Shown here piece by piece: positions 1 to 19,956 of a stretch of DNA of 64,000 nucleotides (position 1 is the stretch's first letter; each line of letters starts with the position of its first letter). Under the pieces are notes generated by a model, which searched no databases, was not told where the DNA came from, and was given only the letters and a program-made list of their open reading frames with translations. The translations under genes were made by a program, and so were the position numbers. The stretch comes from Bacteroidota bacterium (lineage in GTDB: Bacteria > Bacteroidota > Bacteroidia > UBA7662). Location: positions 42,883 through 106,882 of the forward strand of contig DAIQOK010000007.1 in assembly GCA_036787895.1 (NCBI GenBank), given 5' to 3'.

Positions 1-112
1 GAATCAACACTATGTAGACATATATTATCTTTTCATATTGTTAAATAAACTACATTTAAGACATCCAAACTAAAGATGTTCTAATTCCAAACCTACAGCA
101 GAACTCAATCGC

Positions 113-3100
113 ATGAAATCTATCGTTTTTATCGATACCGAAATTGAGCCTAAAAGCTTGCGGATACTGGATATAGGGGGCATTAAGAGCGATGGCAGTT
201 CTTTTCATAAAACTTCGCCTCTTGATTTTATTCAGTTTTTAAAAGGAGTAAAGTTTATTGCGGGGCACAACGTTTTAAATCACGATTACAAATATATTGG
301 CAACCTAATTACTGAGGCCGGCATTGCTCATGATGACCTCATAGATACATTATTCTTATCTCCTTTGCTTTTTCCTGCCAAGCCTTATCATACTTTATTA
401 AAAGACGACAAGCTGCAAACGGAAGAGATGAACAATCCTTTGAACGATGCCATAAAGGCAAAGGAATTGTTTGACGATGAGCTTGCTGCCTTTCAACAGC
501 TGGATGAAACGCTGAAACAGATTTTTTACAATTTGTTGTTTGACAAAAGGGAGTTTATCGCCTTTTTCCGTTTTTTGGAATACAAAGGGGGTTCACTTGA
601 TACCGAAACATTAATTCGACAAGTATTTAAAAAAGAGTTGTGTACACAGGCCAATCTTTCCCAAATAATTAGCGAAAAACCTATTGAACTGGCCTATTGT
701 ATATCGCTGATTCATGCTTTGGTTAAAAACAAAAAAACACATTCTATCACGCCCCCATGGGTGCTGCATAACTTTCCGGATGTTGAAAATATAATGTATC
801 GTTTGCGCAACCAGCCATGTGTAAGTGGCTGTGAGTATTGCAACAATGCTTTGGATATACACAAAGGACTTACTAGATTTTTTGGATTTGATAAGTTTAG
901 AACATATGCCGGTGAGCCCCTCCAGGAAAAAGCAGCCAAGGCGGCCATTAACAACAAATCGATTTTGGCCATTTTCCCTACCGGTGGCGGTAAATCAATT
1001 ACTTTTCAGCTGCCAGCCTTAATGAATGGTGAGCAAGCAAGGGGATTAACGGTTGTAATTTCCCCCTTACAATCGTTGATGAAAGACCAGGTTGATAATC
1101 TGGAAAGAATTGGCATAACAGATGCTGTTACCATTAATGGTTTACTAGATCCTATAGAAAGAGCCAAATCGTTTGAAAGGGTAGCCGATGGTTCAGCCAC
1201 TATCTTGTATATCTCGCCCGAATCGCTGCGGTCAAAGACAATTGAACGTTTATTACTGGGCAGAAACATCGTCCGATTTGTGATAGATGAAGCACACTGT
1301 TTTTCTTCCTGGGGCCAGGATTTTAGGGTTGATTATTTGTACATAGGCGATTTCATTAAACAGCTCCAGGAAAAGAAAAATCTTTCGGAAGGCATACCCG
1401 TTTCCTGTTTTACCGCAACAGCAAAACAGAAAGTAATTGAAGATATACGAGAATATTTTAAAGATAAACTATCGCTAGATCTTGAATTATTTACCTCCCA
1501 AGCAACGCGAACCAATCTCCAATACAAAGTATTTCAAAAAGGCACTGAAGATGAAAAATATCAAGAAGCCAGAGCCTTGATAGAAGCCAAAAATTGTCCT
1601 ACAATTATTTATGTTTCCAGAACTCGAAAAGCTTATTTACTGGCTGAAAGATTGTGCATGGATGGTTTTATTGCCAAGCCCTATCACGGCAAAATGGACA
1701 AACAGGAAAAGTCAGAAAACCAGGATTCGTTTATTAACGGTGAAACCCAAATAATGGTAGCAACTTCTGCTTTTGGTATGGGGGTTGATAAAAAGGATGT
1801 TGGCATGGTGATTCATTATGAAATATCCGACTCACTCGAAAATTACATACAAGAAGCCGGGAGAGCTGGGAGAGATGAAAATATAGTTGCAGATTGTTTT
1901 GTACTCTACAACGAAGAAGATTTAAGCAAACATTTTATCCTATTAAATCAGACTAAACTCTCGATTAAAGAGATACAACAAGTTTGGAAAGCCATCAAAG
2001 ATATCACCAAATTTCGTTCGAGTGTTTCAAACTCCGCTCTCGAAATAGCTAGAAAAGCAGGCTGGGATGACAATGTGGTTGAAATAGAAACCCGGGTAAC
2101 CACGGCAATTGCAGCTCTGGAAGATGCCGGCTATTTAAAACGCGGGCAAAATATGCCTCGAATTTTTGCTAATAGTATTCTATCAAAAAATGCTCAAGAG
2201 GCCATTGATAAAATTTGTGCTTCTGAAAAATTTGAAGAAAAGCAAAAAGAAACCGCTATTCGAATCATTAAAAAGCTCTTTTCCAGTAAAAGTAGAACAC
2301 AATCGGCAGAAGATCCAGCCGAATCAAGGGTAGATTATATCAGCGATCATTTAGGTATTCTAAAAAAAGATGTAATAAACATCATCAACTTGCTTCGTGA
2401 AGAGAAGATTTTAGCCGATAATAAAGATTTAACTGCATTTATAAAAAAAGGGGAGAATAAAAATCGTTCACTCAACATAGTTGAGAATTATCGAAAAATA
2501 GAAAACTTCCTTCTAACGAAATTTAGTCAGGAGGAAAAAACATTTCACATCAAAGAACTGAATGAAGAAGCCGAAAGTCAAGGCTGTGATGAGGTATCGC
2601 CCAGTAAAATTAAAACACTCATCAATTTTTGGGCAATTAAAAATTGGATTAGGCGTCAAAACTTACAATATTCAAAGAACCATTTTTCCGCCGTCTCACT
2701 CTATAGTCCTGATAGTTTAAAAGAAAAATTAGAGAAACGACATGTGTTGAGTGAATTCATTATTAATTTACTTCATACAAGAAGTAGTGCAAATAGTGAA
2801 AGCAAAGAAGAGGAAGTTTTAGTTGAGTTTTCTGTACATGAATTAAAATCAGCTTATGAAAAACTACCTGATTTATTTAAACTAGCCATAGGCATAGAGG
2901 ATATTGAAGACGCCCTCTTTTACCTATCCAGGATAGAAGCACTTAAAATTGAAGGTGGGTTTTTAGTGGTCTACAACAGTTTAACCATCGAACGCATTGA
3001 ACAAGACACTAAACGGCGTTATAAAGTTGAAGATTACCAAAAGCTCAATCAGTTTTATGAAAACAAAGTGCAGCAAATTCATATTGTTGGTGAGTATGCC

Positions 3101-4918
3101 AAAAAAATGATCAACGACTACAGAGAGGCATTACAATTTGTAGAAGATTATTTTCAACTCAATTATCAGTCATTTCTAAATAAATACTTCAAGGGCAGTC
3201 GTCAGAATGAAATCAAAAGAAATTTAACCCCTGAGAAATTCAAACAACTCTTTGGAGAACTGTCTCCAACCCAATTAAAAATTATAAACGACAACGAAAG
3301 TAAACACATAGCGGTTGCTGCCGGCCCCGGTAGCGGAAAAACACGGGTTTTGGTTCATAAATTGGCATCGTTGTTACTGATGGAAGATGTAAAACATGAG
3401 CAATTGCTTATGCTTACATTTTCACGGGCTGCTACTACAGAGTTTAAAAAGCGATTATTAAAACTTATTGGAAATGCAGCGAATTTCATCGAAATAAAAA
3501 CCTTTCACTCTTATTGTTTCGATTTATTAGGTAAGGTTGGTAGCCTTGAAAAGTCAGATGTAGTTTTGAAAAAGACCATTGACAAAATCAAACGAAAAGA
3601 AGTTGAGTCAAGTAGGATTACCAAAACCGTTTTGGTAATTGACGAAGCCCAGGACATGAACGAGGATGAATACAACCTAATAGCTACGTTGATGGAGGAA
3701 AACGAGGAAATGCGCGTAATAGCCGTAGGAGACGACGATCAGAATATTTACGAATTCAGAGGTGCCAGTTCCAAATATCTAGAACGTTTTATAAAAGAAA
3801 ACAATGCAAGTAAGCATGAAATTTTAGAAAATTACAGAAGTAAAAGTAATTTGGTAACACTTACAAATCACTTCGCAGCCACTATTCAACACCGTTTAAA
3901 AAGCACGCCCATCGTTGCCAAACAAACAGATTATGGAAAGTTAAAATTAGTTCGTTATCAAAGTGGAAAACTAATAAGTCCGCTGGTAGAGGGTGTATGT
4001 AGTGCTGAATTAAGGGGGACTAGCTGTGTGCTTACCAAAACCAATGAAGAAGCACAGCAAATAACCGGTCTGTTGTTAAAGAATAAACTTCAAGCAAAAT
4101 TGATTCAATCGAATGAAGGTTTTAGTTTATACAACCTTTTAGAGGTTCGTTTCTTTTTAGATCAACTTAAATTGTCAGATGATGTATTCGTTATTTCTGA
4201 TGAGGTTTGGGATAATGCCATTAGAGCATTAAAAAGCAAGTTTCAACGCAGCACGAAATTTGAAATATGTTTGAATATCATAAAGGATTTTAAAGAAGTC
4301 AACCCCAAAAGGAAATACAAATCTGATTTAGAAGTATTCATACGTGAATCCAAGATGGAAGACTTCTACAATGAGCACGGAGAAACTATTTTCGTATCTA
4401 CCATTCACAAAGCAAAAGGCAAAGAGTTTGACAACGTTTTCCTGATGCTTGACAACATCACAGCAAATAGCGATGAGGCCAAAAGACAATTGTATGTAGC
4501 CTTGACCAGGGCCAAACAACAATTGGTTATACATACTAATTCAACAGTTTTTGATACTATTTCGGCCGAACAGTTGGAAAGAATAGTTGACTTTGATCAA
4601 TACGAACAGCCCAAAGAGCTGGTCATGCATTTAAACTTAAAAGATGTGTGGCTTGACTATTTTATTGACAAACAAAATGCAATAGCAGAACTCATAGCCG
4701 GAGATATGTTGGTTATAAAGAACGATGAATGTTTGAATTCAAAAGGGGATTCTATTTTAAGGTTTTCAAGACATTTTTTGGCACAAATTGACGAATTACA
4801 AGAGAAAGGCTATCAATTGAAGTCAGGCAAGGTAAACTTCATCGTGTACTGGTTAAAGGAAGGCACTACGAATGAGGTAAGAGTTGTTTTGCCAGAGCTT
4901 TATTTTGAGAAAGTTTAG
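113..4918 (+). CDS. Large multidomain DNA-processing protein: N-terminal DnaQ/epsilon-like 3'-5' exonuclease, RecQ-family SF2 helicase core, uncharacterised ~350-aa middle region, C-terminal UvrD/PcrA-like SF1 helicase core
   Basis: The protein starts with a DEDD-type exonuclease signature (FIDTEIE ... HNVLNHDYKYI). RecQ motifs follow: motif I FPTGGGKSITFQLPAL, motif II FVIDEAHCFSSWGQDFRVDY (DEAH), motif III FTATA, motifs V-VI MVATSAFGMGVDKKDVGMVIHYEISDSLENYIQEAGRAGRD. UvrD motifs lie in the C-terminal third: motif I AAGPGSGKTRVL, motif Ia LTFSRAATTEF, motif II VIDEAQDMNEDEY, motif III GDDDQNIYEFRGA, motif IV NYRS, motif V STIHKAKGKEFDNVF, motif VI LYVALTRAK. It is a single uninterrupted 1601-aa ORF with ATG at 113. 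Confidence 0.8.
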   Translation: MKSIVFIDTEIEPKSLRILDIGGIKSDGSSFHKTSPLDFIQFLKGVKFIAGHNVLNHDYKYIGNLITEAGIAHDDLIDTLFLSPLLFPAKPYHTLLKDDKLQTEEMNNPLNDAIKAKELFDDELAAFQQLDETLKQIFYNLLFDKREFIAFFRFLEYKGGSLDTETLIRQVFKKELCTQANLSQIISEKPIELAYCISLIHALVKNKKTHSITPPWVLHNFPDVENIMYRLRNQPCVSGCEYCNNALDIHKGLTRFFGFDKFRTYAGEPLQEKAAKAAINNKSILAIFPTGGGKSITFQLPALMNGEQARGLTVVISPLQSLMKDQVDNLERIGITDAVTINGLLDPIERAKSFERVADGSATILYISPESLRSKTIERLLLGRNIVRFVIDEAHCFSSWGQDFRVDYLYIGDFIKQLQEKKNLSEGIPVSCFTATAKQKVIEDIREYFKDKLSLDLELFTSQATRTNLQYKVFQKGTEDEKYQEARALIEAKNCPTIIYVSRTRKAYLLAERLCMDGFIAKPYHGKMDKQEKSENQDSFINGETQIMVATSAFGMGVDKKDVGMVIHYEISDSLENYIQEAGRAGRDENIVADCFVLYNEEDLSKHFILLNQTKLSIKEIQQVWKAIKDITKFRSSVSNSALEIARKAGWDDNVVEIETRVTTAIAALEDAGYLKRGQNMPRIFANSILSKNAQEAIDKICASEKFEEKQKETAIRIIKKLFSSKSRTQSAEDPAESRVDYISDHLGILKKDVINIINLLREEKILADNKDLTAFIKKGENKNRSLNIVENYRKIENFLLTKFSQEEKTFHIKELNEEAESQGCDEVSPSKIKTLINFWAIKNWIRRQNLQYSKNHFSAVSLYSPDSLKEKLEKRHVLSEFIINLLHTRSSANSESKEEEVLVEFSVHELKSAYEKLPDLFKLAIGIEDIEDALFYLSRIEALKIEGGFLVVYNSLTIERIEQDTKRRYKVEDYQKLNQFYENKVQQIHIVGEYAKKMINDYREALQFVEDYFQLNYQSFLNKYFKGSRQNEIKRNLTPEKFKQLFGELSPTQLKIINDNESKHIAVAAGPGSGKTRVLVHKLASLLLMEDVKHEQLLMLTFSRAATTEFKKRLLKLIGNAANFIEIKTFHSYCFDLLGKVGSLEKSDVVLKKTIDKIKRKEVESSRITKTVLVIDEAQDMNEDEYNLIATLMEENEEMRVIAVGDDDQNIYEFRGASSKYLERFIKENNASKHEILENYRSKSNLVTLTNHFAATIQHRLKSTPIVAKQTDYGKLKLVRYQSGKLISPLVEGVCSAELRGTSCVLTKTNEEAQQITGLLLKNKLQAKLIQSNEGFSLYNLLEVRFFLDQLKLSDDVFVISDEVWDNAIRALKSKFQRSTKFEICLNIIKDFKEVNPKRKYKSDLEVFIRESKMEDFYNEHGETIFVSTIHKAKGKEFDNVFLMLDNITANSDEAKRQLYVALTRAKQQLVIHTNSTVFDTISAEQLERIVDFDQYEQPKELVMHLNLKDVWLDYFIDKQNAIAELIAGDMLVIKNDECLNSKGDSILRFSRHFLAQIDELQEKGYQLKSGKVNFIVYWLKEGTTNEVRVVLPELYFEKV

Positions 4919-5329
4919 GCTAACTGAGATAAAATCACAATTAGTTGACAATCCATCTCTCTGTGCTGCCGCAAAAAGCCGAATCGGGATAATACTACTG
5001 TCGTTCCGGCAACAGCAACAAACGCCCCGCCAAAGGTGCCTGGGCATAAGGCCCGTGGCTTTCGTGCATATCGGGACACATCAGCACCCAGCATTGGACT
5101 TCATAAACCGTAACAGGCCCCTCCTGTTGAACATTATTGTATTCTACGAAAAAAATGTATCTAATACCGGTTTATAAAACAGTCGAGTATTCGGAAAATA
5201 TATCACTAAAATTTCTGCCGGATATGTTTACACATCACGCAACCAACAACACATGGATCGGGAGAAAAATACTGTAGCAAATTGAGGCGGTATAAACCTA
5301 AATTTTGACATTACAACATAATAACAATT

Positions 5330-5447
5330 CACAGAAATTGTTGTATTTTTTCCATGAATTTTACAAAATTTAGCCATTAGCAGGAATTATTTAGTTTGAC
5401 TTTCTATATTTCTGAATTAGTAATTTAAGCTAATCGAAAAATAGCTC
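5330..5447 (+). promoter_or_regulatory. Candidate promoter region in the AT-rich 530-bp spacer upstream of the NUDIX/PLD-helicase operon
   Basis: This is a long AT-rich intergenic region. It contains TAGTTTG (~5390), which matches the Bacteroidota -7 TAnnTTTG consensus, a few tens of bp upstream of the NUDIX ATG at 5448. The call is positional only. Confidence 0.25.
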
Positions 5448-5870
5448 ATGACAGATAAACAAAAATCTCGAGAGAACAAATTGACAAAGTCAGTAAAGGT
5501 TTGTTGTGCTATAATTCTTAATGAGAAAAAAACACTTGTAGTTCAACGTAGTGAAAAGATGTCGTTACCTCTGAAATGGGAGTTTCCAGGTGGTAAAATA
5601 GAATTTGGAGAAACGGAAGAAGAATGTGTCCTTAGAGAGATAAAAGAGGAATTGAATATTGAAATTATCCTTATATCTAGATTAACCCCAACAACATTTT
5701 TTTATCCCAATATTGTGGTACATTTAGTTCCATTTTTGGCCGTATTTTCAAGGGGTGAGATGAAATTATCCGAACATATAAATTACAAATGGTTACAAAA
5801 GGATAAACTTGCTGAATTGGATTGGGCAGAAGCAGATATTCCAATATTAAAAGAATATATCAATATATGA
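5448..5870 (+). CDS. NUDIX hydrolase (MutT-like)
   Basis: The Nudix box GGKIEFGETEEECVLREIKEELNI fits the GX5EX7REUXEEXGU consensus. The protein is 140 aa. Its stop codon TGA overlaps the start codon of the next gene (ATGA at 5867-5870). Confidence 0.85.
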   Translation: MTDKQKSRENKLTKSVKVCCAIILNEKKTLVVQRSEKMSLPLKWEFPGGKIEFGETEEECVLREIKEELNIEIILISRLTPTTFFYPNIVVHLVPFLAVFSRGEMKLSEHINYKWLQKDKLAELDWAEADIPILKEYINI

Positions 5871-8800
5871 TAGAGGGTATTTACGAAGAGCTGGTAACGC
5901 AACTTGTAAGGCAAAATATAGGTGCTTTAGACCAGAGTTCATTCTATATTGAGAAGAGCGTTTTAGACAAAGAAGAGGCTGCAACAATTCTTGCCAAGCA
6001 TCTTGGTCAAACCATAAAACATGCCTTGAGCTATATTAAAGGCGAAAAATCTATAGAACTACAAATAGAGATTGCTAATAAAATTATATTATTTCTGAAA
6101 GAGGAACTGAAAAGAGAAGAATTTGATCAAGATCTTATAGCCATAGAGGGTGAAATATTGAAGGCTGTCTTTTCAAAAATTGATGCGCAATTTTCAGACA
6201 TAAACCTTCATTTAAAAGAAATTACCCCTTATACGCGACTAACACATAGTGAGCTCTTTACTGGTGGAAATGTGGGTTTGTCGCTAGAAAGCGAACTAAA
6301 AAAAGAGATTCTCTCAGCAAATGAAATTGATTTGCTCGTTTCCTTTATCAAGTTTAAAGGTATCATTATACTCGAAAGGGAATTGCGTGAGTTTGCAAAA
6401 CGTGGCGGAAAATTGCGCGTAATTACCACCACGTATATGGGCGCATCAGACTACAAGGCTATCCAGCTCTTGTCCAAATTACAGAATGCAGAAATAAGGA
6501 TATCCTACAATAATGGCAATGAACGCCTGCATGCCAAGGCTTATCTTTTCAAAAGGTCTACAGGTTTTCATACGGGATATATTGGTTCTTCCAATTTTTC
6601 GCGTTCAGCCCTTACTGATGGTTTAGAATGGAACCTGAAAATCACAACCAAAGAGGTAAGTCACATTATTGATAAGTTTCAGAAGACGTTTGATTCATAT
6701 TGGGTGAGTGATGATTTCGAAAAGTTTGATGATAGTATTCATAAGGAGAAATTGATTAGCTCACTGAATCAAGGAAGAATTGGAAAATCTACCTCATTAA
6801 ATACTAATTTTTTTGATGTTAAACCCTTTCCATTTCAGGAGGAAATACTTGAAAAGCTTGATGTTGAGCGTACAAAGCACCATAGAAATAGAAATCTAGT
6901 TGTAGCCGCAACCGGCACTGGTAAAACCGTTATTTCTGCATTTGATTTCAACAGATTCAAGAAAGATAACAGCTCTGCTAAGCTTCTTTTTTTAGCGCAT
7001 AGAAGGGAAATCCTAGAACAATCCATGAGTGCTTTTCGAGGCATTCTAAAAGATAACAATTTTGGCGAGTTATGGGTGGGAGGGATTGAACCTACGAGTT
7101 ATGAACATATTTTTGCATCCATTCAAATATTAAATAATCGTTTAAACGATTTAAATCTTTCTCCACAATATTTTGACTATATAGTAATTGATGAGTGTCA
7201 CCATTTAACTGCAAACTCTTATCGAGGAATCATTAATTATTTCAAGCCTAAAGTTTTAATTGGATTAACTGCCACGCCTGAACGAATGGATGGTGGAGAT
7301 ATTCAAGAAGATTTTCATCACCGAATTGCCGCTGAAATTCGATTGCCAGAAGCCCTAAACAGAAAGTTGTTATGCCCGTTTCAATATTTCGGAATTACAG
7401 ATAGTATAGATCTTTCTCGTATAGGGTGGGAACGCGGGCGATATATAGCCAGTGAATTGTCATCTATTTACACAGCAAACGATAAAAGGATTCGTGAAAT
7501 TATTGACGCATTAGAAAAGTATACCAGAGAACCTAGTGATGTTCGTGCACTTGGGTTTTGCGTAACTATGGAGCACGCCAAGTTTATGGCTGAGAAGTTT
7601 GCGCTTGCTGGACTCAAAGCAGATTATCTAACAAGCGACAACACCCAACACCGAGATAGTGTTAAAGAAATGTTGCTCAGGAAAGAAATTAATTACCTTT
7701 TTGTGGTTGATATTTTTAATGAAGGTGTTGATATTCCGGAAATTGATACCGTTTTGTTTTTAAGGCCAACAGAAAGTCTAACAATATTCTTACAGCAACT
7801 AGGTCGGGGGTTGCGTTTGGCAGAAAATAAAGAGGTCCTAACTGTTTTAGATTTCGTAGGAAATTCTAGACCTGAGTACAATTTTGAAAACAAATTCAGG
7901 GCACTCATTGGCAAAACCGCAACCACTGTAAAAAAAGAAATTGAAGACAATTTTCCGCATTTACCATTAGGCTGCTCTGTAATTTTGGAGAAAAAGGCAA
8001 AGCAGATTATTCTTGAGAATATCACGGCAGCCACTTCGCTCAACAGAAAACAACTAATTCTAAAGATTCAAAGCTTTCAACATCAAACATTACTCGATTT
8101 AAACTTGAAGAATTTTATAGAATTTTATAATATCCCACTTCAATTGATCTATAAGCGCGGGAGCTGGAAAAGACTTTGCCATGAGGCTGGTAGGATTAAA
8201 GATTTTGAAAGTACTAACGAAAAACAAATTGTAAATGCCATTTCAAATAAATGGCTTTCGTGTAACTCATTAAGCTATTTTGAGTTTGTTCGAACTTTAG
8301 CAGAAAATCAATTTAATATATCTGGAATTAAGTTCAATAAAGCTGAGAAGCAAATGCTTTTGATGCTACATTATGATGTTTGGCAAAGTGCAGGCGGCTT
8401 TTCTTCTTTAAAAAATAGTATTGAAGAATTGGGGAAAAACCAGATATTAATTGATGAAATAATAGAAGTCTTGAATATTTTAATTGACAGAGTTGACTTC
8501 AAAGAAATAGACATTGACCTACCCTACCAACAGCCCTTAAAAGTTCATGCGCGTTACACTAGAGATCAAATATTAGCGGCTTTTGGCCTTAGTACCTTTG
8601 AAAAAAAATCTTCAAACCGTGAAGGTGCTGCTGTAAATTTAGCACTGAATACAGAGCTTTTATTTATCAATTTAATTAAGTCAGAAGAAAACTTCTCTCC
8701 TACCACCATGTATGATGACTATGCGATTAATGAAAACCTGTTTCATTGGCAAAGTCAAAATTCAGCAGGCCCAGAAACTCCTAAAGGTTTGTCCTACTTA

Positions 8801-9007
8801 GACCATGAACGGAATCAAAAGAAAATATTACTTTTTATTCGCGAGAAGAATAAAGATGAATTTGGCAATACTCAGGGCTATGTGTTTGTAGGCGAAGCAA
8901 ATTTGCGAGATCATTATGGTGCAAAACCAATGAACATAAAATGGGAGTTGAATGAGCCTTTGCCCCATTTTTTGTGGCATGATGCAGCAAAACTGAGGGT
9001 GGGTTAG
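5867..9007 (+). CDS. PLD-family (HKD) nuclease domain + SF2 ResIII/DEAH-type helicase + C-terminal DUF3427-like domain protein
   Basis: An HKD-type motif RLHAKAYLF ... GSSNFS lies in the N-terminal third. Helicase motif I is VVAATGTGKTVISAF, motif II is IVIDECHHLT, motif III is GLTATPER, and motif VI is QQLGRGLR. The C-terminal ~250 aa (HARYTRDQILAAFG ... GYVFVGEANL) resembles DUF3427, which commonly follows this helicase type. I place the start at ATG 5867, overlapping the NUDIX stop. The ORF track begins at 5822 with a non-ATG start. Confidence 0.8.
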   Translation: MIEGIYEELVTQLVRQNIGALDQSSFYIEKSVLDKEEAATILAKHLGQTIKHALSYIKGEKSIELQIEIANKIILFLKEELKREEFDQDLIAIEGEILKAVFSKIDAQFSDINLHLKEITPYTRLTHSELFTGGNVGLSLESELKKEILSANEIDLLVSFIKFKGIIILERELREFAKRGGKLRVITTTYMGASDYKAIQLLSKLQNAEIRISYNNGNERLHAKAYLFKRSTGFHTGYIGSSNFSRSALTDGLEWNLKITTKEVSHIIDKFQKTFDSYWVSDDFEKFDDSIHKEKLISSLNQGRIGKSTSLNTNFFDVKPFPFQEEILEKLDVERTKHHRNRNLVVAATGTGKTVISAFDFNRFKKDNSSAKLLFLAHRREILEQSMSAFRGILKDNNFGELWVGGIEPTSYEHIFASIQILNNRLNDLNLSPQYFDYIVIDECHHLTANSYRGIINYFKPKVLIGLTATPERMDGGDIQEDFHHRIAAEIRLPEALNRKLLCPFQYFGITDSIDLSRIGWERGRYIASELSSIYTANDKRIREIIDALEKYTREPSDVRALGFCVTMEHAKFMAEKFALAGLKADYLTSDNTQHRDSVKEMLLRKEINYLFVVDIFNEGVDIPEIDTVLFLRPTESLTIFLQQLGRGLRLAENKEVLTVLDFVGNSRPEYNFENKFRALIGKTATTVKKEIEDNFPHLPLGCSVILEKKAKQIILENITAATSLNRKQLILKIQSFQHQTLLDLNLKNFIEFYNIPLQLIYKRGSWKRLCHEAGRIKDFESTNEKQIVNAISNKWLSCNSLSYFEFVRTLAENQFNISGIKFNKAEKQMLLMLHYDVWQSAGGFSSLKNSIEELGKNQILIDEIIEVLNILIDRVDFKEIDIDLPYQQPLKVHARYTRDQILAAFGLSTFEKKSSNREGAAVNLALNTELLFINLIKSEENFSPTTMYDDYAINENLFHWQSQNSAGPETPKGLSYLDHERNQKKILLFIREKNKDEFGNTQGYVFVGEANLRDHYGAKPMNIKWELNEPLPHFLWHDAAKLRVG

Positions 9008-9152
9008 GTGAAAAGGGGATAATATTCTTGTGATCAGGTTTAATACAAGTCTTTTTATACACCAGAAGCAGTTACAGAAATCACAAAGAAGTAAAGTAGT
9101 TCGAGTAGACCCAGCCTCTACAAAAGGAAGCCACCTAAAAAAGGAGTTATCG

Positions 9153-9201
9153 CCCTGCCTTTGGGCCTTTTCGTATTCACCGGCTGCCGTTGGGGCATAC
9201 A
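9153..9201. repeat. Direct repeat copy A (~47 bp) duplicating the 5' end of the downstream TlpA-like lipoprotein gene; candidate att site
   Basis: cctgcctttgggccttttcgtattcaccggctgccgttggggcataca (copy A) against cctgcttttgggccttttcgtattcatcggctgccgttggggcataca at ~10470-10518, with 2 mismatches in 47 bp. Flanking bases are also partly similar (cctaaaaaagga / cctaaaaaggaa). Confidence 0.8.
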
Positions 9202-9292
9202 AAGTGTAGGCAATACAGCAGACAATTTCTATTGAATCTGAAAGAAGCACACATAGCACCAAGCAATAAAACCTTTGTCATACCCAAGGTAA

Positions 9293-9393
9293 ATGTCGAT
9301 TTTTTCCTGTTTCATCGACATATCCGAATAATAGGTTTATGCCATCGACATAAGCCACAGATATGTTTAAAACTGGGCAATATTTCGACATAT
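9293..9393. repeat. Cluster of four TCGACATA-type 8-bp motifs (one inverted, three direct); candidate protein-binding (arm-type/operator) sites
   Basis: atgtcgat at 9293-9300 (inverted); tcgacata at 9315-9322, 9345-9352 and 9385-9392. Spacing between copies is ~30-40 bp. The region is non-coding and lies immediately inside repeat copy A. Confidence 0.6.
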
Positions 9394-9484
9394 CTCGAAA
9401 ATAGCTTTACAACAGCGATAGGTTAACCAACTAAAAAACACACATGGGACCAGCAACCGTTTGGTTTTATAATCTCGTGTAGGG

Positions 9485-10084
9485 TCAATCTTCTCCCTTC
9501 AAAGTAATCAAATCAAAATACATCAATCTCGTGGACAAAGGTATGCTGGGTTCATGTCCAGTGTGTTCTGCTTCCTGTTTTTCGGTACTGAATATAAACT
9601 CGAAGCTATTGTCTTGATAATACTTTAGGGGTGCAGCTTGGTTATAGGCATCTACAACGATGAAGCGACATCCGGTTTTATTTTGTTCATCTACAAACCA
9701 AGATTTAATAAAATCCATCAGTTCTTTGCCGATTCCTCTTTTTTTAAAGTCTTCTGCAACACCCAAGCGACCAATTAATACTGCAGGATAACTTCTTATG
9801 TGTTTCTCTCTTGGAACATCCTTGATAACCTTCTTTTTCCGGCTGCCTGGCATTCCATTTACTTTTATGCTGTCGTTGGATATTGTGAATGCACAAACCA
9901 TTTGACATGGAGATTCATCGGTAGTGAATACATAAGTTTTGCCAAGCAATTCTCTGGCATAAGCCAATGCCTCGTTTTCAAAAAAGTCGTTTAAGTCTGC
10001 ATTTCCACAGTCGAGTGGTTTGCAGGATTTGAAAAGATCTGCCGTGAGCAGTTGCAATTGGCAATGTTCGAGCAGATAACCCAA
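9485..10084 (-). CDS. GNAT-family N-acetyltransferase, toxin-like (candidate type II TA toxin)
   Basis: The 199-aa protein has an acetyl-CoA-binding GNAT core (VLIGRLGVAEDFKKRGIGKELM). It is preceded 11 bp upstream by a small ORF. Its position in the island and its size class are consistent with GNAT toxins, but the toxin assignment is inferential. Confidence 0.55.
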   Translation of the reverse strand: MGYLLEHCQLQLLTADLFKSCKPLDCGNADLNDFFENEALAYARELLGKTYVFTTDESPCQMVCAFTISNDSIKVNGMPGSRKKKVIKDVPREKHIRSYPAVLIGRLGVAEDFKKRGIGKELMDFIKSWFVDEQNKTGCRFIVVDAYNQAAPLKYYQDNSFEFIFSTEKQEAEHTGHEPSIPLSTRLMYFDLITLKGED

Positions 10085-10095
10085 CGGCTGAATGT

Positions 10096-10254
10096 TTAAA
10101 TATTAGCCTTTTTAAGAATTGCTTTTGCTGTTTTTTGTTGCGCGCTGAAGTTAACAGTAGCTTTTTTTGCCAAGCCTGCTTTGGCTTTTTTCTGAAAAGA
10201 CGCAGCTACCCGTCCGGTGAGTACAGGAATAGATTTAATAGTAGTTGCCATCAT
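10096..10254 (-). CDS. Unannotated small ORF (~52 aa, MMATTIKSIPVLTGRVAASFQKKAKAGLAKKATVNFSAQQKTAKAILKKANI), candidate antitoxin/partner of the GNAT gene
   Basis: I translated this by hand from the minus strand: ATG (revcomp) at 10252-10254 and TAA stop at 10096-10098. It is lysine-rich and lies immediately upstream of and co-oriented with the GNAT gene. It is below the 60-aa cutoff of the supplied ORF track. Confidence 0.4.
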   Translation of the reverse strand: MMATTIKSIPVLTGRVAASFQKKAKAGLAKKATVNFSAQQKTAKAILKKANI

Positions 10255-10450
10255 CGTTTCGTTTTAGTGTCTACAAAATAAACATAAAGGACTGATATAC
10301 CAAAACATAAGACAGTTAACCTATCTCAGGTCTATTCATCATTTCATCGCTTGAGTGAACCTCAAAGCCTTCCAAATCGTTCTGCACGGTATACCATTTG
10401 GCTCAGCTTCAATCGTATCTTTATCCCCATCCCCTAAAAAGGAAAACCAC

Positions 10451-11701
10451 ATGAAAAAATTAACACTCGGCCTGCTTTTGGGCCTTTTCGTATTCATCGG
10501 CTGCCGTTGGGGCATACATCTCGAAGGGCAGTACCGCCTCCAATTTGGCCAATGGCGCGGAGCGCTGCTTACCGATGGGGGCGAGTTGCCCTTTATTTTT
10601 GAGATGAGTCGTTTGCCCGATTCGTCTTTCAGCTTTGTGCTGCACGATGGCGATCAACTGGTGGAGTCGAGCGAGTTTGAGATTGTGGGCGATTCGTTTA
10701 TTGTGCGTTTTCCGGTCTTTGAGAGTACTTTAATCGGTGCCATCTCTACCATGGGCGATACGCTGCGGGGGGAGTTGATACGAGTGAAATACGATGTAGA
10801 AAGCCGCTTGCCTTTTGTGGCGGTAGCAGGGGGTAAATATAAGTTCGCTGCCATTAGTGGCCGACTGCCGGCCGAGCTAGATGGCAAATGGCAGACGACC
10901 ATGTACAAAAACAATGGCGACAGCACCGAAGCCATCGGCCTGTTTAGCCAGACCGGCAGCGACATTAGCGGTTCTTTTGCCACCAATTTTGGCGATTACC
11001 GCTTTTTGAGCGGCATAGTCGATGGCGATTCGTTGTTTATGTCGGGTTTCGACGGTTCGGGAGCTTATTTGTTCAAGGCGCGTTACGACAAAGTCACCGC
11101 TACCCTCAGCGGCGATATGTATGCCGGGCAGTCGAAAATCCGGACTTGGAAAGCGGTGCGTAATGCCGACTACCAACTCGCCGATCCGAACGCGCTCACC
11201 TACCTCAAAAATCCGAAAGCCGGCATCAGCTTCAGCTTCCCGAATACCGAAGGCAAAATGATCAGCACCTCCGACCCGGCCTACCAGGACAAAGTGGTGG
11301 TACTGCAAATTTTAGGCAGCTGGTGCCCGAATTGTCTGGATGAAACACCTTTTTTGGCCGAATTCCACAACAAATACCAAAGTCAAGGACTCGAAGTTAT
11401 CGGCCTCGGATTTGAACGTACCGCCATTAAAGAGAAGGCCTTCAACAATCTGCAGCGCCTGAAAACCCGCTACAAAGCCAATTACGAAATAGTTTTGGCC
11501 GGCACCCCCGATTCAACCGGTGTAGCCAACGCCTTGCCGAATCTGGCGAAAATAGCCGCTTTCCCGACCACCATTTTTATCGATAAAAAAGGTGTGGTTC
11601 GACGCATACATACCGGCTTTAATGGTCCCGCCACCGGCGAACCTTATACCGAATACCAGGCCGAGTTTACGCATTACATCGAAAGTCTGCTCGCCGAATG
11701 A
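10451..11701 (+). CDS. TlpA-like thiol:disulfide oxidoreductase (thioredoxin-fold) lipoprotein
   Basis: A lipoprotein-type signal peptide, MKKLTLGLLLGLFVFIGC, starts at ATG 10451. The C-terminal redoxin domain carries a WCPNC active site (VVLQILGSWCPNCLDETPFLAEF). The stop overlaps the mfd start (ATGA). Confidence 0.8.
   Translation: MKKLTLGLLLGLFVFIGCRWGIHLEGQYRLQFGQWRGALLTDGGELPFIFEMSRLPDSSFSFVLHDGDQLVESSEFEIVGDSFIVRFPVFESTLIGAISTMGDTLRGELIRVKYDVESRLPFVAVAGGKYKFAAISGRLPAELDGKWQTTMYKNNGDSTEAIGLFSQTGSDISGSFATNFGDYRFLSGIVDGDSLFMSGFDGSGAYLFKARYDKVTATLSGDMYAGQSKIRTWKAVRNADYQLADPNALTYLKNPKAGISFSFPNTEGKMISTSDPAYQDKVVVLQILGSWCPNCLDETPFLAEFHNKYQSQGLEVIGLGFERTAIKEKAFNNLQRLKTRYKANYEIVLAGTPDSTGVANALPNLAKIAAFPTTIFIDKKGVVRRIHTGFNGPATGEPYTEYQAEFTHYIESLLAE
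10470..10518. repeat. Direct repeat copy B (within the signal-peptide codons of the tlpA-like gene); partner of copy A
   Basis: See copy A: 45 of 47 bases are identical. Confidence 0.8.
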
Positions 11702-14700
11702 GCGACAGCCTCGTCGCCCTTGTAGGTGAGCGCCCCCGGGAGGAGAGCACCAAAAGTGCCCTCGGCCAGCTGCTCGCTTTATACGGACTGCATCCCAAAC
11801 ACCAGGAGCTCTGCGCTGCCCTGAATCAGAACCAGGCGCGGATCGTACTCAAGGGCACCCCCGGTTCCTTGCCGGCGGTATTGGCAGCAGCTACCTGGCA
11901 ACAGCGGCCAGCCACCTATTTGTTGGTGCTCAACGATCGCGAAGAGGCGGCCTATTTTCACAACGACCTGGCCAGTCTGCTGCCCGAGCGGGAAATTCTG
12001 TTTTTCCCGGCCAGCTACAAAAAACATTTCGACCCGGAACAACTGCAGAGCAGCCATGTGCTCCAACGCGCCGAGGTGCTCAACCAGGTAAACCACAACA
12101 AACGCCAGGGCGAGCTCATCGTCACCTATCCCGAAGCGCTGGCCGAGAAGGTCGTCAACAAATTCACCATCACCAAAAACACCATCGACATCCGGCTGAA
12201 GGAGAAACTCAATCTCGACTTCATCACCGAAATGCTCGTCGAATACGGTTTTGAGCGGGAAGATTTTGTGTACGAACCCGGTCAGTTCAGCATACGCGGA
12301 GGCATAGTAGATGTATTCAGCTTCGCCAACGAGTTGCCCTACCGCATCGAGCTCTTCGGCGACGAGGTCGACAGCATACGCACCTTCGACCCCGAATCGC
12401 AGCTCAGCGTCAAAACCATCGGTCAGCTGAGCCTCATCCCCAACATCCAAACCCATCTCCTCAAAGAAAGTCGGGAGTCGTTGCTCAACTTCCTACCCGC
12501 CAACACCACAGTCTGGATACGCGACATCGTGCTCACGGCCGACGTCATAGATCAGTGTTACGAAAAAGCCGAGGAAAACTGGAACCAGGCCCACGATTTA
12601 TCGGAACTCACCCCATCGGAGGCTTTCGAAGACGGCAACTCCTGGCAGGCTTTGTTGCTGGAGAAGCAAGTCGTGGAATTCGGCACAGATCAGTTGGCCG
12701 GCAAAAAAACCATCATCGACTGGGCCTCGCAACCCCAGATTGCCATCCGCAAAAACTTCGACCTGCTCATCAGCAGCATGCAGGAGAACGAAAAAAAGGG
12801 CATAAAAAACCTCTTGTTCAGTGATGCCAAAGCACAAATCGAGCGATTGTACCACATTTTCGAAGATTTGAAAGCCGGCGTGGCTTTTTACCCTTTGTAT
12901 ACCAGTCTGCACGAAGGATTTATAGACCAGCAGCTGCACATCAGTGTATTTACTGACCACCAGATTTTTGAGCGTTACCACAAATACAAGCTCAGCAGTT
13001 ATAAGTCGAAAGGTGCCGGCATCACGCTCAAAGACCTGAAAGAACTCCGCCCAGGCGACCATGTGGTGCATATCGACCACGGCGTTGGGGTATTCGACGG
13101 CCTGCAGAAGATAGATGTGAACGGCCAGCAACAGGAGGCCGTGCGTTTGATTTACCGCGATGGCGATTTGTTGTATGTCGGCATCAACTCCCTCCACAAA
13201 ATTGCCAAATACAGCGGCAAAGAAGGCGTACCTCCGCGGGTCAACAAACTCGGCAGCGATGTGTGGGAGAAGCTGAAGAGCAAAACGAAGTCGAAGGTTA
13301 AGGACATCGCCAAAGACCTCATCGAGCTTTACGCCAAACGCAAAGGCACCGCCGGCTTCGCCTTTTCACCCGACAGTTATCTTCAGAACGAACTCGAGGC
13401 CAGCTTCATTTACGAAGACACCCCCGACCAATACAAGGCCACCGAAGCCGCCAAGGCTGATATGCAAAAACCATATCCCATGGACCGTTTGGTCTGCGGT
13501 GATGTAGGTTTTGGCAAGACGGAAGTCGCCATACGCGCTGCCTTTAAAGCCGCCACCGATGGCAAACAGGTCGCTGTACTCGTGCCCACCACCATACTTG
13601 CCCTCCAACATTTCAAAACTTTCAGCACCCGATTGCGCGATTTTCCGGTCACAGTAGATTATGTCAACCGTTTCCGTTCTGCCAAAGATGAAAAGGCTGT
13701 TCTAGAAAAAGTAACGAGCGGTAAAGTAGACATACTGATCGGTACGCATAAGTTGGTAGGCAAAAATGTGAAGTTTAAAGACCTAGGCTTGCTCATCATC
13801 GATGAAGAACAAAAGTTTGGCGTAGGTGTAAAAGAAAAGCTCCGGCAAATGCGGGTGAATGTAGATACGCTCACGCTTACTGCTACACCGATACCACGCA
13901 CTTTGCAGTTTTCGCTCATGGGTGCCCGCGATTTGAGCGTCATCACCACACCGCCACCCAACCGTCAGCCGGTACAGACGGAATTGGTACACTTCGACGA
14001 GGACAAAATCCGGGAAGCCATTTTGTATGAAGTTGACCGCGGTGGCCAGGTCTTTTTCGTGCACAACCGGGTCACCAACATCAAAGACGTGGCGCAGCTC
14101 GTGCAGCGGCTTTGTCCGAAAGTGAGCATTTGTGTAGGCCATGGCCAAATGCCCGGCGATGAGCTCGAAGATGTGCTTTTAGACTTCATCGACGGCAAAT
14201 ACGATGTATTGGTGGCCACCAACATCATCGAATCGGGCCTCGACATCCCGAATGCCAATACCATCATCATTAATATGGCTCAGAATTTTGGGCTCAGCGA
14301 TTTGCACCAGATGCGCGGCCGGGTGGGTCGGAGTAATACCAAGGCTTTCTGTTATCTCGTCACGCCACCCACGGCAACGCTCACCACCGAGGCCCGCAAA
14401 CGTCTCAAAGCACTCGAAGAATACAGCGATTTAGGCAGCGGTTTCCAGATTGCCATGCGCGATTTGGACATACGTGGTGCTGGTAATATGCTGGGTGCCG
14501 AACAAAGTGGTTTCATCACCGAAATCGGCTTCGATATGTATCAAAAGATACTCGACGAGGCCTTGCGCGAGCTGAAAGACACTGAATATGCCGGCTTGTT
14601 CGAAGATGCCGGTCCACGTGAATTTGTGCGCGATGTACAGTTAGATACCGATTTGAACGCCTTGTTGCCCGAGCGTTATGTGCGTAATACCACCGAACGT

Positions 14701-15072
14701 CTGGCCCTCTATATGCAGCTCGACAATACCGAAACCGAGGATGGCCTCGAACGTTTCCGCGCCGAATTGCTCGACCGTTTTGGTCCCTTGCCGCAGGAAG
14801 CAGAAACTTTGCTTACGTTAATCCGTTTGCGTTGGGCCGCGAAAGGCCTGGGCATGGAAAAAGTGGTATTGAAAGGCGGCAAGATGAAGTGTTATTTCGT
14901 CAGTGGCAAAAACGAAGCCTTTTACCAAAGCGACATATTTGGTCGTATACTCGACCATGTGCGGATAAACGCTGCACGGGTAAGCCTAAAACAAACTACG
15001 GCCACTGTGGTGCTCGAATTCCAGGGCGTAAAGGGAGCAGAGGCTGCTTTAACTGCTTTGAACGAAATCTAA
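11698..15072 (+). CDS. mfd: Transcription-repair coupling factor Mfd
   Basis: The protein is 1124 aa. SF2 translocase motifs are present: LVCGDVGFGKTEVAIRAA, LIIDEEQKFGV, TLTATPIPRT, QMRGRVGRS. The overall architecture matches Mfd/TRCF. Confidence 0.95.
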   Translation: MSDSLVALVGERPREESTKSALGQLLALYGLHPKHQELCAALNQNQARIVLKGTPGSLPAVLAAATWQQRPATYLLVLNDREEAAYFHNDLASLLPEREILFFPASYKKHFDPEQLQSSHVLQRAEVLNQVNHNKRQGELIVTYPEALAEKVVNKFTITKNTIDIRLKEKLNLDFITEMLVEYGFEREDFVYEPGQFSIRGGIVDVFSFANELPYRIELFGDEVDSIRTFDPESQLSVKTIGQLSLIPNIQTHLLKESRESLLNFLPANTTVWIRDIVLTADVIDQCYEKAEENWNQAHDLSELTPSEAFEDGNSWQALLLEKQVVEFGTDQLAGKKTIIDWASQPQIAIRKNFDLLISSMQENEKKGIKNLLFSDAKAQIERLYHIFEDLKAGVAFYPLYTSLHEGFIDQQLHISVFTDHQIFERYHKYKLSSYKSKGAGITLKDLKELRPGDHVVHIDHGVGVFDGLQKIDVNGQQQEAVRLIYRDGDLLYVGINSLHKIAKYSGKEGVPPRVNKLGSDVWEKLKSKTKSKVKDIAKDLIELYAKRKGTAGFAFSPDSYLQNELEASFIYEDTPDQYKATEAAKADMQKPYPMDRLVCGDVGFGKTEVAIRAAFKAATDGKQVAVLVPTTILALQHFKTFSTRLRDFPVTVDYVNRFRSAKDEKAVLEKVTSGKVDILIGTHKLVGKNVKFKDLGLLIIDEEQKFGVGVKEKLRQMRVNVDTLTLTATPIPRTLQFSLMGARDLSVITTPPPNRQPVQTELVHFDEDKIREAILYEVDRGGQVFFVHNRVTNIKDVAQLVQRLCPKVSICVGHGQMPGDELEDVLLDFIDGKYDVLVATNIIESGLDIPNANTIIINMAQNFGLSDLHQMRGRVGRSNTKAFCYLVTPPTATLTTEARKRLKALEEYSDLGSGFQIAMRDLDIRGAGNMLGAEQSGFITEIGFDMYQKILDEALRELKDTEYAGLFEDAGPREFVRDVQLDTDLNALLPERYVRNTTERLALYMQLDNTETEDGLERFRAELLDRFGPLPQEAETLLTLIRLRWAAKGLGMEKVVLKGGKMKCYFVSGKNEAFYQSDIFGRILDHVRINAARVSLKQTTATVVLEFQGVKGAEAALTALNEI

Positions 15073-15917
15073 ACCGGATAAACCAATACCGGAATTTCGG
15101 CCCGGTACACGAGATCGTCGACTACATTGGAGCCAAAAACGGCATCGAAAAAGCTGCGGTTCTGGTGGATAAGGATGACGAGATGCGGGTAGATTTCGGC
15201 AATGGCTTTATCGAGCCCCTCTTCCACATCGTTATTGCGCAACTCCATAAAATGCAGGTTTTTGTACTCCACAGCCTTGCGGGTAAGCGTTTCGAAGCCA
15301 ATAAAGCGTAATTTTTCATCAAAACTTGGTTTGGTTCTGATGTGTAATACATGTATTGAGCTTTTGAATTCTTTGGCCAGGGTGGTGGCTTTTTGGAGCA
15401 CATTGAGGTCGTTTTCCTTGAAGTCGGTGGCAAACAACATACGATCGAGCTTCACCTCCGGCAATTTGGAGGTTGTGGCCAATACAGGGCAGGAAGTAAG
15501 GTCGATAACGCCAGAAGTGGTGGTATCAAACACAAAACGACGTAAGCCGGTAGTGATCCGATTACCCATACAAATGAGATCGGCTTGAACTTCTGCGGCG
15601 GTTTGAATGATGGTGGTCACCGCTGCGCCTGTCCGCAATAAACTCACGACCCTGGATTTGCTGCCGGCTAAATTGAGCTTAGCACGTTCCAGGGCTTGTT
15701 TCAACGCAGGTTTGGAGACTTTTTCATGCTCCTTCCTGATTTTATCTTGCTGGATATTGGTGCCGTGAGCTAATTCAATCACGTGCAGCAAGATGATACG
15801 TGCTTTGGTTTTGGAAGCGATTAAGGTGGCGTAGTCGATGGCTCGATTGGCTTTGTCGCTGAAATCGGTGGGGACCAATATGATTTGTACCGTTGATTTT
15901 TCTTTTTTCTCGGCCAT
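15069..15917 (-). CDS. Universal stress protein (tandem UspA domains)
   Basis: Two Usp-like halves are visible: ILVPTDFSDKANRAIDYA ... and LFATDFKEN ... The protein is 282 aa. It is convergent with mfd and overlaps it by 4 bp. Confidence 0.75.
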   Translation of the reverse strand: MAEKKEKSTVQIILVPTDFSDKANRAIDYATLIASKTKARIILLHVIELAHGTNIQQDKIRKEHEKVSKPALKQALERAKLNLAGSKSRVVSLLRTGAAVTTIIQTAAEVQADLICMGNRITTGLRRFVFDTTTSGVIDLTSCPVLATTSKLPEVKLDRMLFATDFKENDLNVLQKATTLAKEFKSSIHVLHIRTKPSFDEKLRFIGFETLTRKAVEYKNLHFMELRNNDVEEGLDKAIAEIYPHLVILIHQNRSFFDAVFGSNVVDDLVYRAEIPVLVYPV

Positions 15918-15918
15918 C

Positions 15919-16752: not shown

Positions 16753-16854
16753 GGCGAATTGCTTTGGTGATATAAAGATACACAATTGTCTGGGCTTCGG
16801 GGAGGATGGGAACAGGGTTAATTCTGACTTCAGGGAAGCTGTACAGCGTCGTAG

Positions 16855-17055
16855 GGCTCCTGGGTTTAGATATGGCTTTGCCTCAGGTTTAGACTCGGCT
16901 TCGCCTCGAGTTTGGTGGCGCTGCGATTCTGTTTAGTCGTATGTTTCCCAAGAGAACGTCAGCTAAGCCAGTTTCACCCTTGACGGACGACTAAACAGGC
17001 GCAGCCGCTAAACCCAGGCCGTAGGCCGGCTATACCTCGCGCCCAGCGCCTAAAC
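16855..17055. repeat. Long imperfect inverted repeat / structured element in the usp-hydrolase divergent intergenic region
   Basis: The left arm carries gggtttaga / aggtttaga / gagtttgg and ctgtttagtcgt (16929-16940). The right arm carries the reverse complement acgactaaacag (16991-17002), then ctaaaccca twice. Arms are ~70-80 nt around a ~40-nt centre. Confidence 0.5.
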
Positions 17056-19716: not shown

Positions 19717-19904
19717 TTCATGCTTCAACCAGCAAGTATTTTATGAAAGTTTAGTTAATATCCTTAACTATAACAAATTATACTTTTAGCCTGTTTTATA
19801 CCATTCCGGTAATTCCTTCTTATTTGTAGCATTTCCATTCACTTGTTAATCGAAATCATTTTAACCATCAATTGAAGCAATAATTGAGACTTTAAATAAC
19901 ATTA

Positions 19905-19939: not shown

Positions 19940-19956
19940 CACAGCAAGCTTTAAGC

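Follow-up and report, generated by a model that had tools for sequence, protein, structure and literature searches.

We analysed a 64,000-nt stretch of DNA from an uncultured Bacteroidota bacterium (lineage UBA7662; GenBank assembly GCA_036787895.1, contig DAIQOK010000007.1, positions 42,883 to 106,882), referred to below as the window. Its first ~10,412 nt are best interpreted as the visible part of a defence-island hotspot upstream of the core genes tlpA (a tlpA-like thiol:disulfide oxidoreductase lipoprotein gene) and mfd (the transcription-repair coupling factor gene), made up as a mosaic of independently acquired AT-rich modules; we give this reading a probability of about 80%. Foreign composition, variable cargo and defence genes, the three marks of a genomic or defence island at a hotspot, were all found. 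Foreign composition, non-synteny and cargo matching known or candidate defence families together make "horizontally acquired defence island" the right description. An earlier annotation made from the sequence alone (the original prediction) had described positions 1-10,440, called the block here, as one AT-rich and probably horizontally acquired island abutting mfd. The block was found to abut the tlpA-like gene instead, which overlaps the start of mfd by 4 nt.

Composition and variability of the region upstream of tlpA

The GC content of the block was 0.367, compared with 0.476 in the remaining 53.6 kb (10,441-64,000). All ten 1-kb bins of the block had values of 0.346-0.392 and the other 53 bins had values of 0.399-0.545, without overlap (Mann-Whitney p = 3e-7). 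The lowest 10-kb bin outside the block had a GC content of 0.420. Tetranucleotide usage, scored symmetrically for the two strands, lay at a distance of 34-37 from the remainder of the window for the block, compared with 10-17.5 for ordinary 5-kb bins beyond 10 kb, and reached 20-26 over a giant gene at 20-29 kb. Codon usage was scored for four block genes, with a 52-aa open reading frame (ORF) left out as too short. GC content at third codon positions (GC3) in these genes was 0.24-0.36 and codon adaptation 0.64-0.68, compared with 0.528±0.054 and 0.747±0.037, respectively, in 35 core genes. At the right-hand edge, GC stepped abruptly in 200-nt bins from 0.415 to 0.505 to 0.545 between 10,301 and 10,700. 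This composition step lies at ~10,412-10,450, ~35 nt 5' of the tlpA-like start codon. An AT-rich block of ~10 kb was thus borne out by GC, GC3, codon adaptation and tetranucleotide usage; a GC or codon-usage profile without a significant shift had been named as possible counter-evidence, and the shift observed was large and significant. The coding GC values given earlier were slightly high, both for the block (36-40%; measured 32-38%) and for mfd, gcvP and kbl (50-60%; measured 50-52%).

The locus was then compared in seven related contigs found via tlpA homologues, in each of which tlpA was 72-97% identical and mfd lay next to it. One of these, L015, was found through cluster member P0124 and belongs to an independent Logan assembly. 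In L001, L015, L097, L098, L102 and L104, mfd adjoined tlpA; L015, L097, L098, L102 and L104 extended into two usp genes after mfd, and L099 ended inside mfd. Upstream of tlpA, L015 (tlpA 97% identical) contained a 198-aa gene, DarG-DarT, a relic of an HNH_2 endonuclease gene, a homologue of the 1,601-aa gene that opens our window (96% at the amino acid level), a Schlafen-like helicase gene (PDC-S41, 1.6e-277), a conserved non-coding segment termed seg, and a module encoding a GNAT acetyltransferase. L097 (95%) contained a hybrid sensor kinase gene, HipBA, an intact HNH_2 gene, a helix-turn-helix (HTH) gene with two C5-methyltransferases and NOV_C, and seg. In L099/L100 (91%), a sensor kinase gene (Y_Y_Y in L097 and L099), HipBA and HNH_2 were followed by an EcoO109I-type restriction-modification system and an M78 peptidase gene, the latter with a homologue of the 52-aa ORF before it; next came part of seg, a dead duplicate of the tlpA 5' end and an HTH gene. 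L098 (84%) carried a methyltransferase, a HerA-like ATPase, Septu PtuA (1e-214) and a PDC-S07 NUDIX gene (1e-46) beside an SRA-HNH nuclease gene, and L102/L103 (72%) carried HNH_2 and SoFic (1e-110). The site was empty in L104 (82%), in which 205 nt separate the end of an aldehyde dehydrogenase gene from tlpA and GC stays level at ~0.48.

Six different upstream contents, the empty site included, were therefore set against a conserved right flank. Homology to the window began at 10413 in L001, 10416 in L097, 10412 in L098, 10413 in L099 and 10434 in L104. The differing cargo, together with the fixed start of homology at 10,412-10,434, identifies the region upstream of tlpA as a defence hotspot. 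Different genes adjoined the tlpA-like upstream neighbour of mfd in the relatives, and synteny of the whole block, the other observation named as counter-evidence, was not found. L001 was the one close relative recovered from a tlpA scan of genome contigs, and its contig breaks 141 nt upstream of tlpA. The other matches in that scan were ~40% relatives in which tlpA is not beside mfd, which makes them uninformative on synteny.

The closest relative also indicated that the block is composite. L015 matched the window at 1-4918 (93%) and 9212-16868 (91%), not at 4919-9211, where it holds 2.2 kb of unrelated sequence with the Schlafen-like helicase gene. Both contained the 1,601-aa gene, at 93% nucleotide identity, and the GNAT module, at about 96%, and the variable cassette at 4919-9211 was bracketed in the window by two gene relics, the C-terminus of HNH_2 and the tlpA 5' end. 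The prediction of a horizontally acquired island consequently stood as regards acquisition and defence content, but not as regards a single island, given the different cassette of L015. The predicted defence cargo was present; no integrase, transposase or tRNA was seen. We agree that the left boundary lies outside the window. Coordinates of the features are collected in Table 1.

Table 1. Features of the block and its right flank in the window (., no strand).
Feature	Position	Strand	Remarks
Non-coding, 5' of the 1,601-aa gene	1..112	.	89% identical to L015 2882-2988; island runs on leftwards beyond the window
1,601-aa fusion protein gene	113..4918	+	DEDDh exonuclease with RecQ-type and UvrD-type helicases
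Relic, 3' end of HNH_2 endonuclease gene	4947..5087	-	Codons ~270-317 of 319
NUDIX hydrolase, 140 aa	5448..5870	+	Pfam NUDIX 1e-17; PADLOC candidate family PDC-S07 6e-46; GC3 0.241
SauUSI-type type IV (modification-dependent) restriction enzyme, 1,046 aa	5867..9007	+	PLD nuclease, superfamily 2 (SF2) ResIII/DEAD helicase and DUF3427
Dead copy of tlpA 5' end (about -35 to +65)	9113..9201	+	Start codon ATG changed to CTA; direct repeat with 10454-10518
Conserved non-coding segment seg	9212..9467	.	blastn 80-87% to L015, L097, L099, L102
GNAT acetyltransferase, 199 aa, putative toxin of AtaT/TacT/KacT kind	9485..10084	-	TTG start uncertain; Pfam Acetyltransf_1/7, marginal
52-aa ORF, putative antitoxin	10096..10254	-	11 nt upstream of GNAT gene; 98% conserved (aa) in L015
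Right boundary of variable region	10412..10450	+	Homology to relatives with other cargo begins here
tlpA-like thiol:disulfide oxidoreductase lipoprotein, 416 aa	10451..11701	+	Pfam Redoxin/AhpC-TSA; GC3 0.604; core right flank
mfd (transcription-repair coupling factor)	11698..15072	+	Core gene; 4-nt overlap with tlpA stop; named homologues

Defence-related cargo of the block

The gene content listed in the original prediction was correct. Two proteins carry three helicase motors between them (RecQ and UvrD types at 113-4918, ResIII/DEAD at 5867-9007), and there are two nucleases, a NUDIX gene and a toxin-antitoxin-like pair formed by the GNAT gene and the 52-aa ORF.

The most firmly assigned system was the pair of genes in the 4919-9211 cassette. 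The restriction enzyme matched the PADLOC model mREase_IV (PDLC03659) over its full length (2.9e-235) and the SauUSI structure 7clg with an E-value of 1.8e-87. Its PLD nuclease motif HxK...GSxN was present (Pfam PLDc_2 1.6e-13), with LHAKAYLF and IGSSNFS aligning to HAKGYIF and IGSSNLT of SauUSI. The SF2 helicase motifs ATGTGKT, DECHH and QQLGRGLR were also found (ResIII 3.9e-40, Helicase_C 6e-11), as was the C-terminal DUF3427 target-recognition domain (Pfam 1.4e-29, aa 801-1054). As predicted from its family, the enzyme would combine ATP-driven translocation with cleavage by the PLD nuclease of DNA containing 5-methyl- or 5-hydroxymethyl-cytosine, this specificity being predicted in the same way. 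The NUDIX stop overlaps the start of the restriction enzyme gene (ATGA), so the two are translationally coupled. The NUDIX box (consensus GX5EX7REUXEEXGU) read GKIEFGETEEECVLREIKEELNI, with all catalytic positions present and the last G replaced by N, and the closest NCBIfam models, MutT and pyrimidine (deoxy)nucleoside triphosphate ((d)NTP) diphosphatase, were both below cut-off. The NUDIX protein most likely hydrolyses modified or damaged pyrimidine dNTPs, which would keep the target modification out of the cell's own DNA or starve a phage of modified precursors. The paper on SauUSI reported at least 60 SauUSI-like genes with a linked MutT/NUDIX gene, whose function it left open (PMC3141236); owing to that linkage, the NUDIX-restriction enzyme pair is a known cassette (since 2011). 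In L098 (8595-9824), a PDC-S07 NUDIX gene whose product is 38% identical to that of the window lies tail-to-tail with an SRA-HNH (ScoMcrA-like) nuclease gene. A PDC-S07 NUDIX gene beside a modification-dependent nuclease gene is therefore represented by two independent cases, SauUSI-type in the window and SRA-HNH in L098, and both pairings sharpen a testable idea on the role of this long-unexplained NUDIX partner.

To the left of these genes lies the HNH_2 relic, which was recognised by a tblastn match to the HNH_2 protein of L097 (60% over 48 aa, E 4e-11) and by blastn at 76-78% to L097 and L099. The gene is intact at the corresponding locus in L097, L099 and L102. A GC-richer patch at 4957-5089 was considered as a candidate RNA and rejected, as the patch is the HNH_2 gene relic; the Rfam search of 1-12,000 gave no match.

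The large gene at the left end encodes a 1,601-aa protein with a DEDDh 3'-5' exonuclease fold at aa 1-~110 plus a helical extension, a RecQ-type SF2 helicase at aa ~250-637, a helical, winged-HTH-like middle region, a UvrD-type superfamily 1 helicase at aa ~1044-1484 and a C-terminal ~120 aa of no recognised type. The first ~250 residues matched no family in the Pfam or PDB profile search (28 homologues), and the DEDDh exonuclease identity of the N-terminus came from a fold search alone. Residues D8, E10, D58, H93 and D98 were invariant in the 28 homologues, and an RNase-H-like fold with the D-E-D-D-h acidic residues was present. The RecQ core matched the PADLOC models for PsyrT and DpdF (1e-79 to 1e-96) and the UvrD part that for GajB (~1e-43). 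These matches were at the domain level only, with no PADLOC model spanning the full protein, and none of the partners PsyrA, dpdA-K cluster or GajA was encoded in 1-10,440 according to ORF, Pfam and PADLOC scans.

More than 120 database clusters matched this protein at 75-82% identity, and the best 120 were all full-length, with Arenibacter, Flavobacterium, Zhouia, Hydrotalea, Marivirga, Cyclobacteriaceae, Tenuifilaceae, Chitinophagaceae and Saprospiraceae among the taxa, so that identity is at least 75% across at least four Bacteroidota orders. Mfd from the window had 10 clusters above 76% and the remainder at 62% or less, with every named taxon at 56-59%; for tlpA, named taxa were at ~40-45% identity. 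Because the 1,601-aa protein is far more alike across orders than Mfd, recent horizontal spread is the best explanation. The GC content of homologous genes in 80 metagenome loci was 0.31-0.49. In five higher-GC hosts (L016, L025, L034, L039 and L089), the gene was 0.09-0.15 below its upstream flank, for example 0.35 vs. 0.50 in L016 and 0.34 vs. 0.48 in L025. A match of the protein to a Bacteroides "plasmid" had a context that looks ordinary chromosomal and was not used as plasmid evidence.

Using Pfam and PADLOC, 150 neighbours within 3 kb of the homologous genes were surveyed. No partner gene was conserved across the 80 loci, in which the neighbours varied and the NUDIX, restriction enzyme and GNAT genes never recurred. 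The neighbours included HIT-methyltransferase fusions (11), HNH_4 (7), HTH regulators and Gp49/HigB-like toxins (5), as well as AbiE, DarG, SoFic, PD-Lambda-2, PDC-S41, PDC-S11, and type I and IIG restriction enzymes. In ~11 of the 80 loci (including L016, L060, L062, L064, L070, L073 and L092), the homologue was directly adjoined, upstream in some and downstream in others, by a fusion of methyltransferase and HIT (~288 aa), in most cases together with an HNH_4 protein (~370 aa). These genes may form a two-gene system of their own or act as a facultative partner of the 1,601-aa gene. It is plausible, although less likely than not, that the 1,601-aa fusion acts by itself as a hitherto undescribed system against phages or mobile elements and has been passed horizontally among Bacteroidota. 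Judging from its families, the helicase-exonuclease would unwind and degrade foreign or aberrant DNA ends, which is the least certain step of the proposed mechanism. This very widely transferred protein is the least understood part of the block and a candidate for experimental defence screens.

The GNAT protein is a distant relative of known toxins. All 11 of its best PDB matches were toxins of GNAT toxin-antitoxin systems (E 6e-5 to 5e-3), including AtaT (6ajm/6ajn), 6gts, TacT (6g96) and KacT (5zgn). The 52-aa ORF had no match in Pfam, NCBIfam or PADLOC and did not resemble DUF1778/ribbon-helix-helix (RHH) antitoxins in these searches. By analogy with the family, the toxin would acetylate charged tRNA and halt translation once the labile antitoxin, putatively the 52-aa protein, was lost. 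In L015 (10248-10842), the GNAT gene is split by a frameshift with the 52-aa ORF intact (98% aa), which reflects either toxin decay or an assembly error. In L099 (7711-9109), a homologue of the 52-aa ORF (83% nt to window 10096-10307) precedes the M78 (ImmA/IrrE-like) peptidase gene and not a GNAT gene, which suggests from sequence that this small protein swaps partners. A 20-nt inverted repeat around the toxin module (9408-9427 / 10315-10334) was rejected as likely chance, since by our estimate ~5 matches of this kind (11 nt) would be expected.

In the window and in L015, the GNAT module stands between seg and tlpA. In L097 and L102, seg is directly upstream of tlpA, and it is therefore probably the native upstream region of tlpA; its counterparts are at 9972-10244 in L015, 9668-9923 in L097 and 9616-9960 in L102. 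The segment carries 4-6 TCGACAT/ATGTCGA half-sites, including an 8-bp palindrome pair, and had no Rfam match. It resembles an operator or iteron array and is possibly the native tlpA-mfd regulatory region. A TAtcTTTa box within the right boundary resembles the Bacteroidota -7 promoter element and is a putative one. GTG at 10355 was rejected as the tlpA start, as homologues are all 416 aa and start at the ATG at 10451.

Gene relics, proposed cassette exchange and alternative explanations

The duplicated gene-5' fragment reported in the original prediction is real, but it is not at the end of the block: the dead copy of tlpA lies 1.25 kb inside it, and the AT-rich sequence ends at ~10,412. Positions 9113-9201 and 10421-10518 matched at 82-86%, with ~15 differences in the first ~39 nt and 1 in the last 45 nt. 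No such relic was present at the corresponding position in L015. A second relic, at 9404-9489 in L099, ends at the same column with its ATG likewise changed to CTA, but resembles the first at only 75%. The 16 nt TGGGCCTTTTCGTATT were invariant in all ten tlpA 5' copies, both relics included, even at synonymous sites.

From these observations, we propose that cassettes have been swapped by recombination with DNA of related strains and not by a resident integrase. One end of each swap would be anchored in conserved flanks and the other would be illegitimate, leaving truncated pieces of flanking genes behind. The modules from left to right would then be the 1,601-aa fusion, the 4919-9211 cassette, the native upstream segment of tlpA, and the GNAT toxin with its small antitoxin inserted before tlpA. 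The native order was probably HNH_2(-) ... seg-tlpA, with cargo exchanged on both sides of seg, in the interval to HNH_2 and in that to tlpA. The 4919-9211 cassette may have arrived as one complete "HNH_2 ... tlpA" interval from a donor whose NUDIX and restriction enzyme genes stood against tlpA. Such a donor layout would parallel L098, with its NUDIX and SRA-HNH genes against tlpA, and the imported interval would have been joined illegitimately just left of seg.

The direct repeats could also be explained by site-specific integrative or cis-mobilisable elements that inserted into the 5' end of tlpA and built up in tandem, each supplying a new tlpA 5' end and displacing the previous one, with the recombinase and the outer attachment (att) copy to the left of the window or acting in trans. 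This would concern the small right-hand part and not the 10-kb block, and we consider it improbable. It draws on the 44/45 identity of the 3' ends of the repeats, on the L099 relic, which ends at the same column and is followed by a one-gene insert (HTH_3) and then a fresh tlpA 5' end, and on the invariant 16 nt. However, no integrase or transposase was found among the ORFs of 1-10,440 or upstream of tlpA in the relatives (up to 10 kb in six of the seven and ~6.3 kb in L104); no tRNA target was seen over the same upstream spans, and the 64-kb window contained no tRNA or tmRNA anywhere. Because the left end lies outside the window, the absence of a recombinase is not absolute. The repeats bracket only 1.25 kb, namely the conserved segment and the toxin part, L015 lacks the left repeat but has the same toxin module, and cargo varies also beyond the conserved segment, where there is no repeat. 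Relics that are only 75% alike and yet share the two-base start-codon change point to one old event followed by rearrangement. As the repeats flank just 1.25 kb and the window relic shares its start-codon change with that of L099, this relic is more readily read as a scar of recombination than as an att site belonging to the 10-kb block. In another reading, novel but weaker, the first ~65 nt of tlpA may be a recombination site at which very small cassettes without a recombinase of their own insert.

Two further explanations have far less probability. The block could be ancestral to the lineage, its AT-richness arising from local mutational or selective bias, given that the 1,601-aa gene (93%) and the GNAT module (about 96%) are shared with L015 at identities similar to or above that of the core (91%); at least those parts indeed predate the split of the two strains. 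The variable loci already contradict this, with five other relatives lacking any of the block at the site, and it is also opposed by GC3 values 3-5 standard deviations below core genes and by the 1,601-aa protein being far more similar across orders than Mfd, so that we regard it as very unlikely. A chimera of assembly or binning that joined AT-rich foreign DNA to a core contig had to be considered for a window that is probably from a metagenome-assembled genome, and the L001 contig does break 141 nt from tlpA. It is for practical purposes ruled out by L015, an independent assembly that spans the same junctions (1,601-aa gene, seg, toxin module, tlpA), and L097-L103 span analogous AT-rich/core junctions at the same nucleotide.

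Several points weigh against the mosaic hotspot reading. The left boundary was not seen, so a recombinase may lie further left. A site-specific crossover site would also account for the end point and ATG-to-CTA change shared by the two tlpA relics and for the near-identity of the 3' 45 nt of the window relic to the live gene. The sequence of events was reconstructed from seven loci and not from a phylogeny, and the NUDIX substrate, the antitoxin role of the 52-aa protein and the role of the 1,601-aa protein are inferred. In addition, the 1,601-aa protein has a homologue in Bacteroides finegoldii (50% identity) whose gene has ordinary neighbours. The 1,601-aa family is thus not exclusively island-borne, and the wider family may include housekeeping members. 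We retain the mosaic hotspot as the preferred reading. It describes a clean defence hotspot on the chromosome of an uncultured Bacteroidota lineage, in which loci of this type have received little study, and an exchange of cassettes that leaves flanking-gene pieces behind without a visible integrase; current understanding is not overturned.

Other differences from the relatives were observed to the right of mfd. A second compositionally foreign region (window 19690-28663) consists of one gene for a 2,795-aa protein (19957-28344, minus strand; GC3 0.33, codon adaptation 0.62), a beta-helix / lamin-tail / CARDB protein with a type IX secretion system (T9SS) C-terminal sorting domain. This gene is absent from L097, where 54 nt separate the two genes that flank it (130-aa and DUF4442). 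The two usp genes are immediately followed by pdxJ in L098 and L104, and in L104 then by gcvP; pdxJ-gcvP lies at 47220-51036 in the window, which indicates that ~30 kb (16785-47220) was inserted or rearranged relative to those relatives.

Comparison with known systems

The restriction enzyme is closest to SauUSI of S. aureus (7clg), with which it shares the PLD, SF2 helicase and DUF3427 layout, the aligned catalytic motifs and an adjacent NUDIX gene (SAUSA300_2432 in S. aureus), which is translationally coupled in the window. The two differ in that the 7clg match covers the PLD and helicase parts and is weak in the C-terminal domain, and in an extra ~130-aa N-terminal extension of the window enzyme. 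The GNAT module resembles AtaT-AtaR, TacT-TacA and KacT-KacA in that its best solved-structure matches are exclusively GNAT toxins and a small same-strand ORF lies 11 nt upstream, whereas the similarity is weak (E about 1e-4) and the putative antitoxin has 52 aa and no DUF1778/RHH match.

The 1,601-aa protein shares the N-terminal fusion of a DEDDh exonuclease to a helicase with WRN (exonuclease and RecQ) and S. aureus DinG (DEDDh exonuclease and helicase). It is like the defence helicases PsyrT/RqlH, DpdF and GajB at the level of the helicase domains, although their partner genes are absent here. We know of no system that joins exonuclease, RecQ and UvrD in one 1,600-aa chain, and nothing specific to this architecture was found in the literature.

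Defence islands and chromosomal hotspots with variable defence cargo between conserved core genes occur in E. coli, Pseudomonas and Vibrio. The region described here differs from these known hotspots in its uncultured Bacteroidota host, in having no integrase or prophage backbone in view, in the relics of both flanking genes inside it and in a left flank that lies outside the window. It has in common with them a conserved core flank (tlpA-mfd), a sharply bounded foreign insert, varied systems alongside an empty site, and interspersed toxin-antitoxin modules. The hotspot is a well-known kind of genomic island and not a new kind of system.

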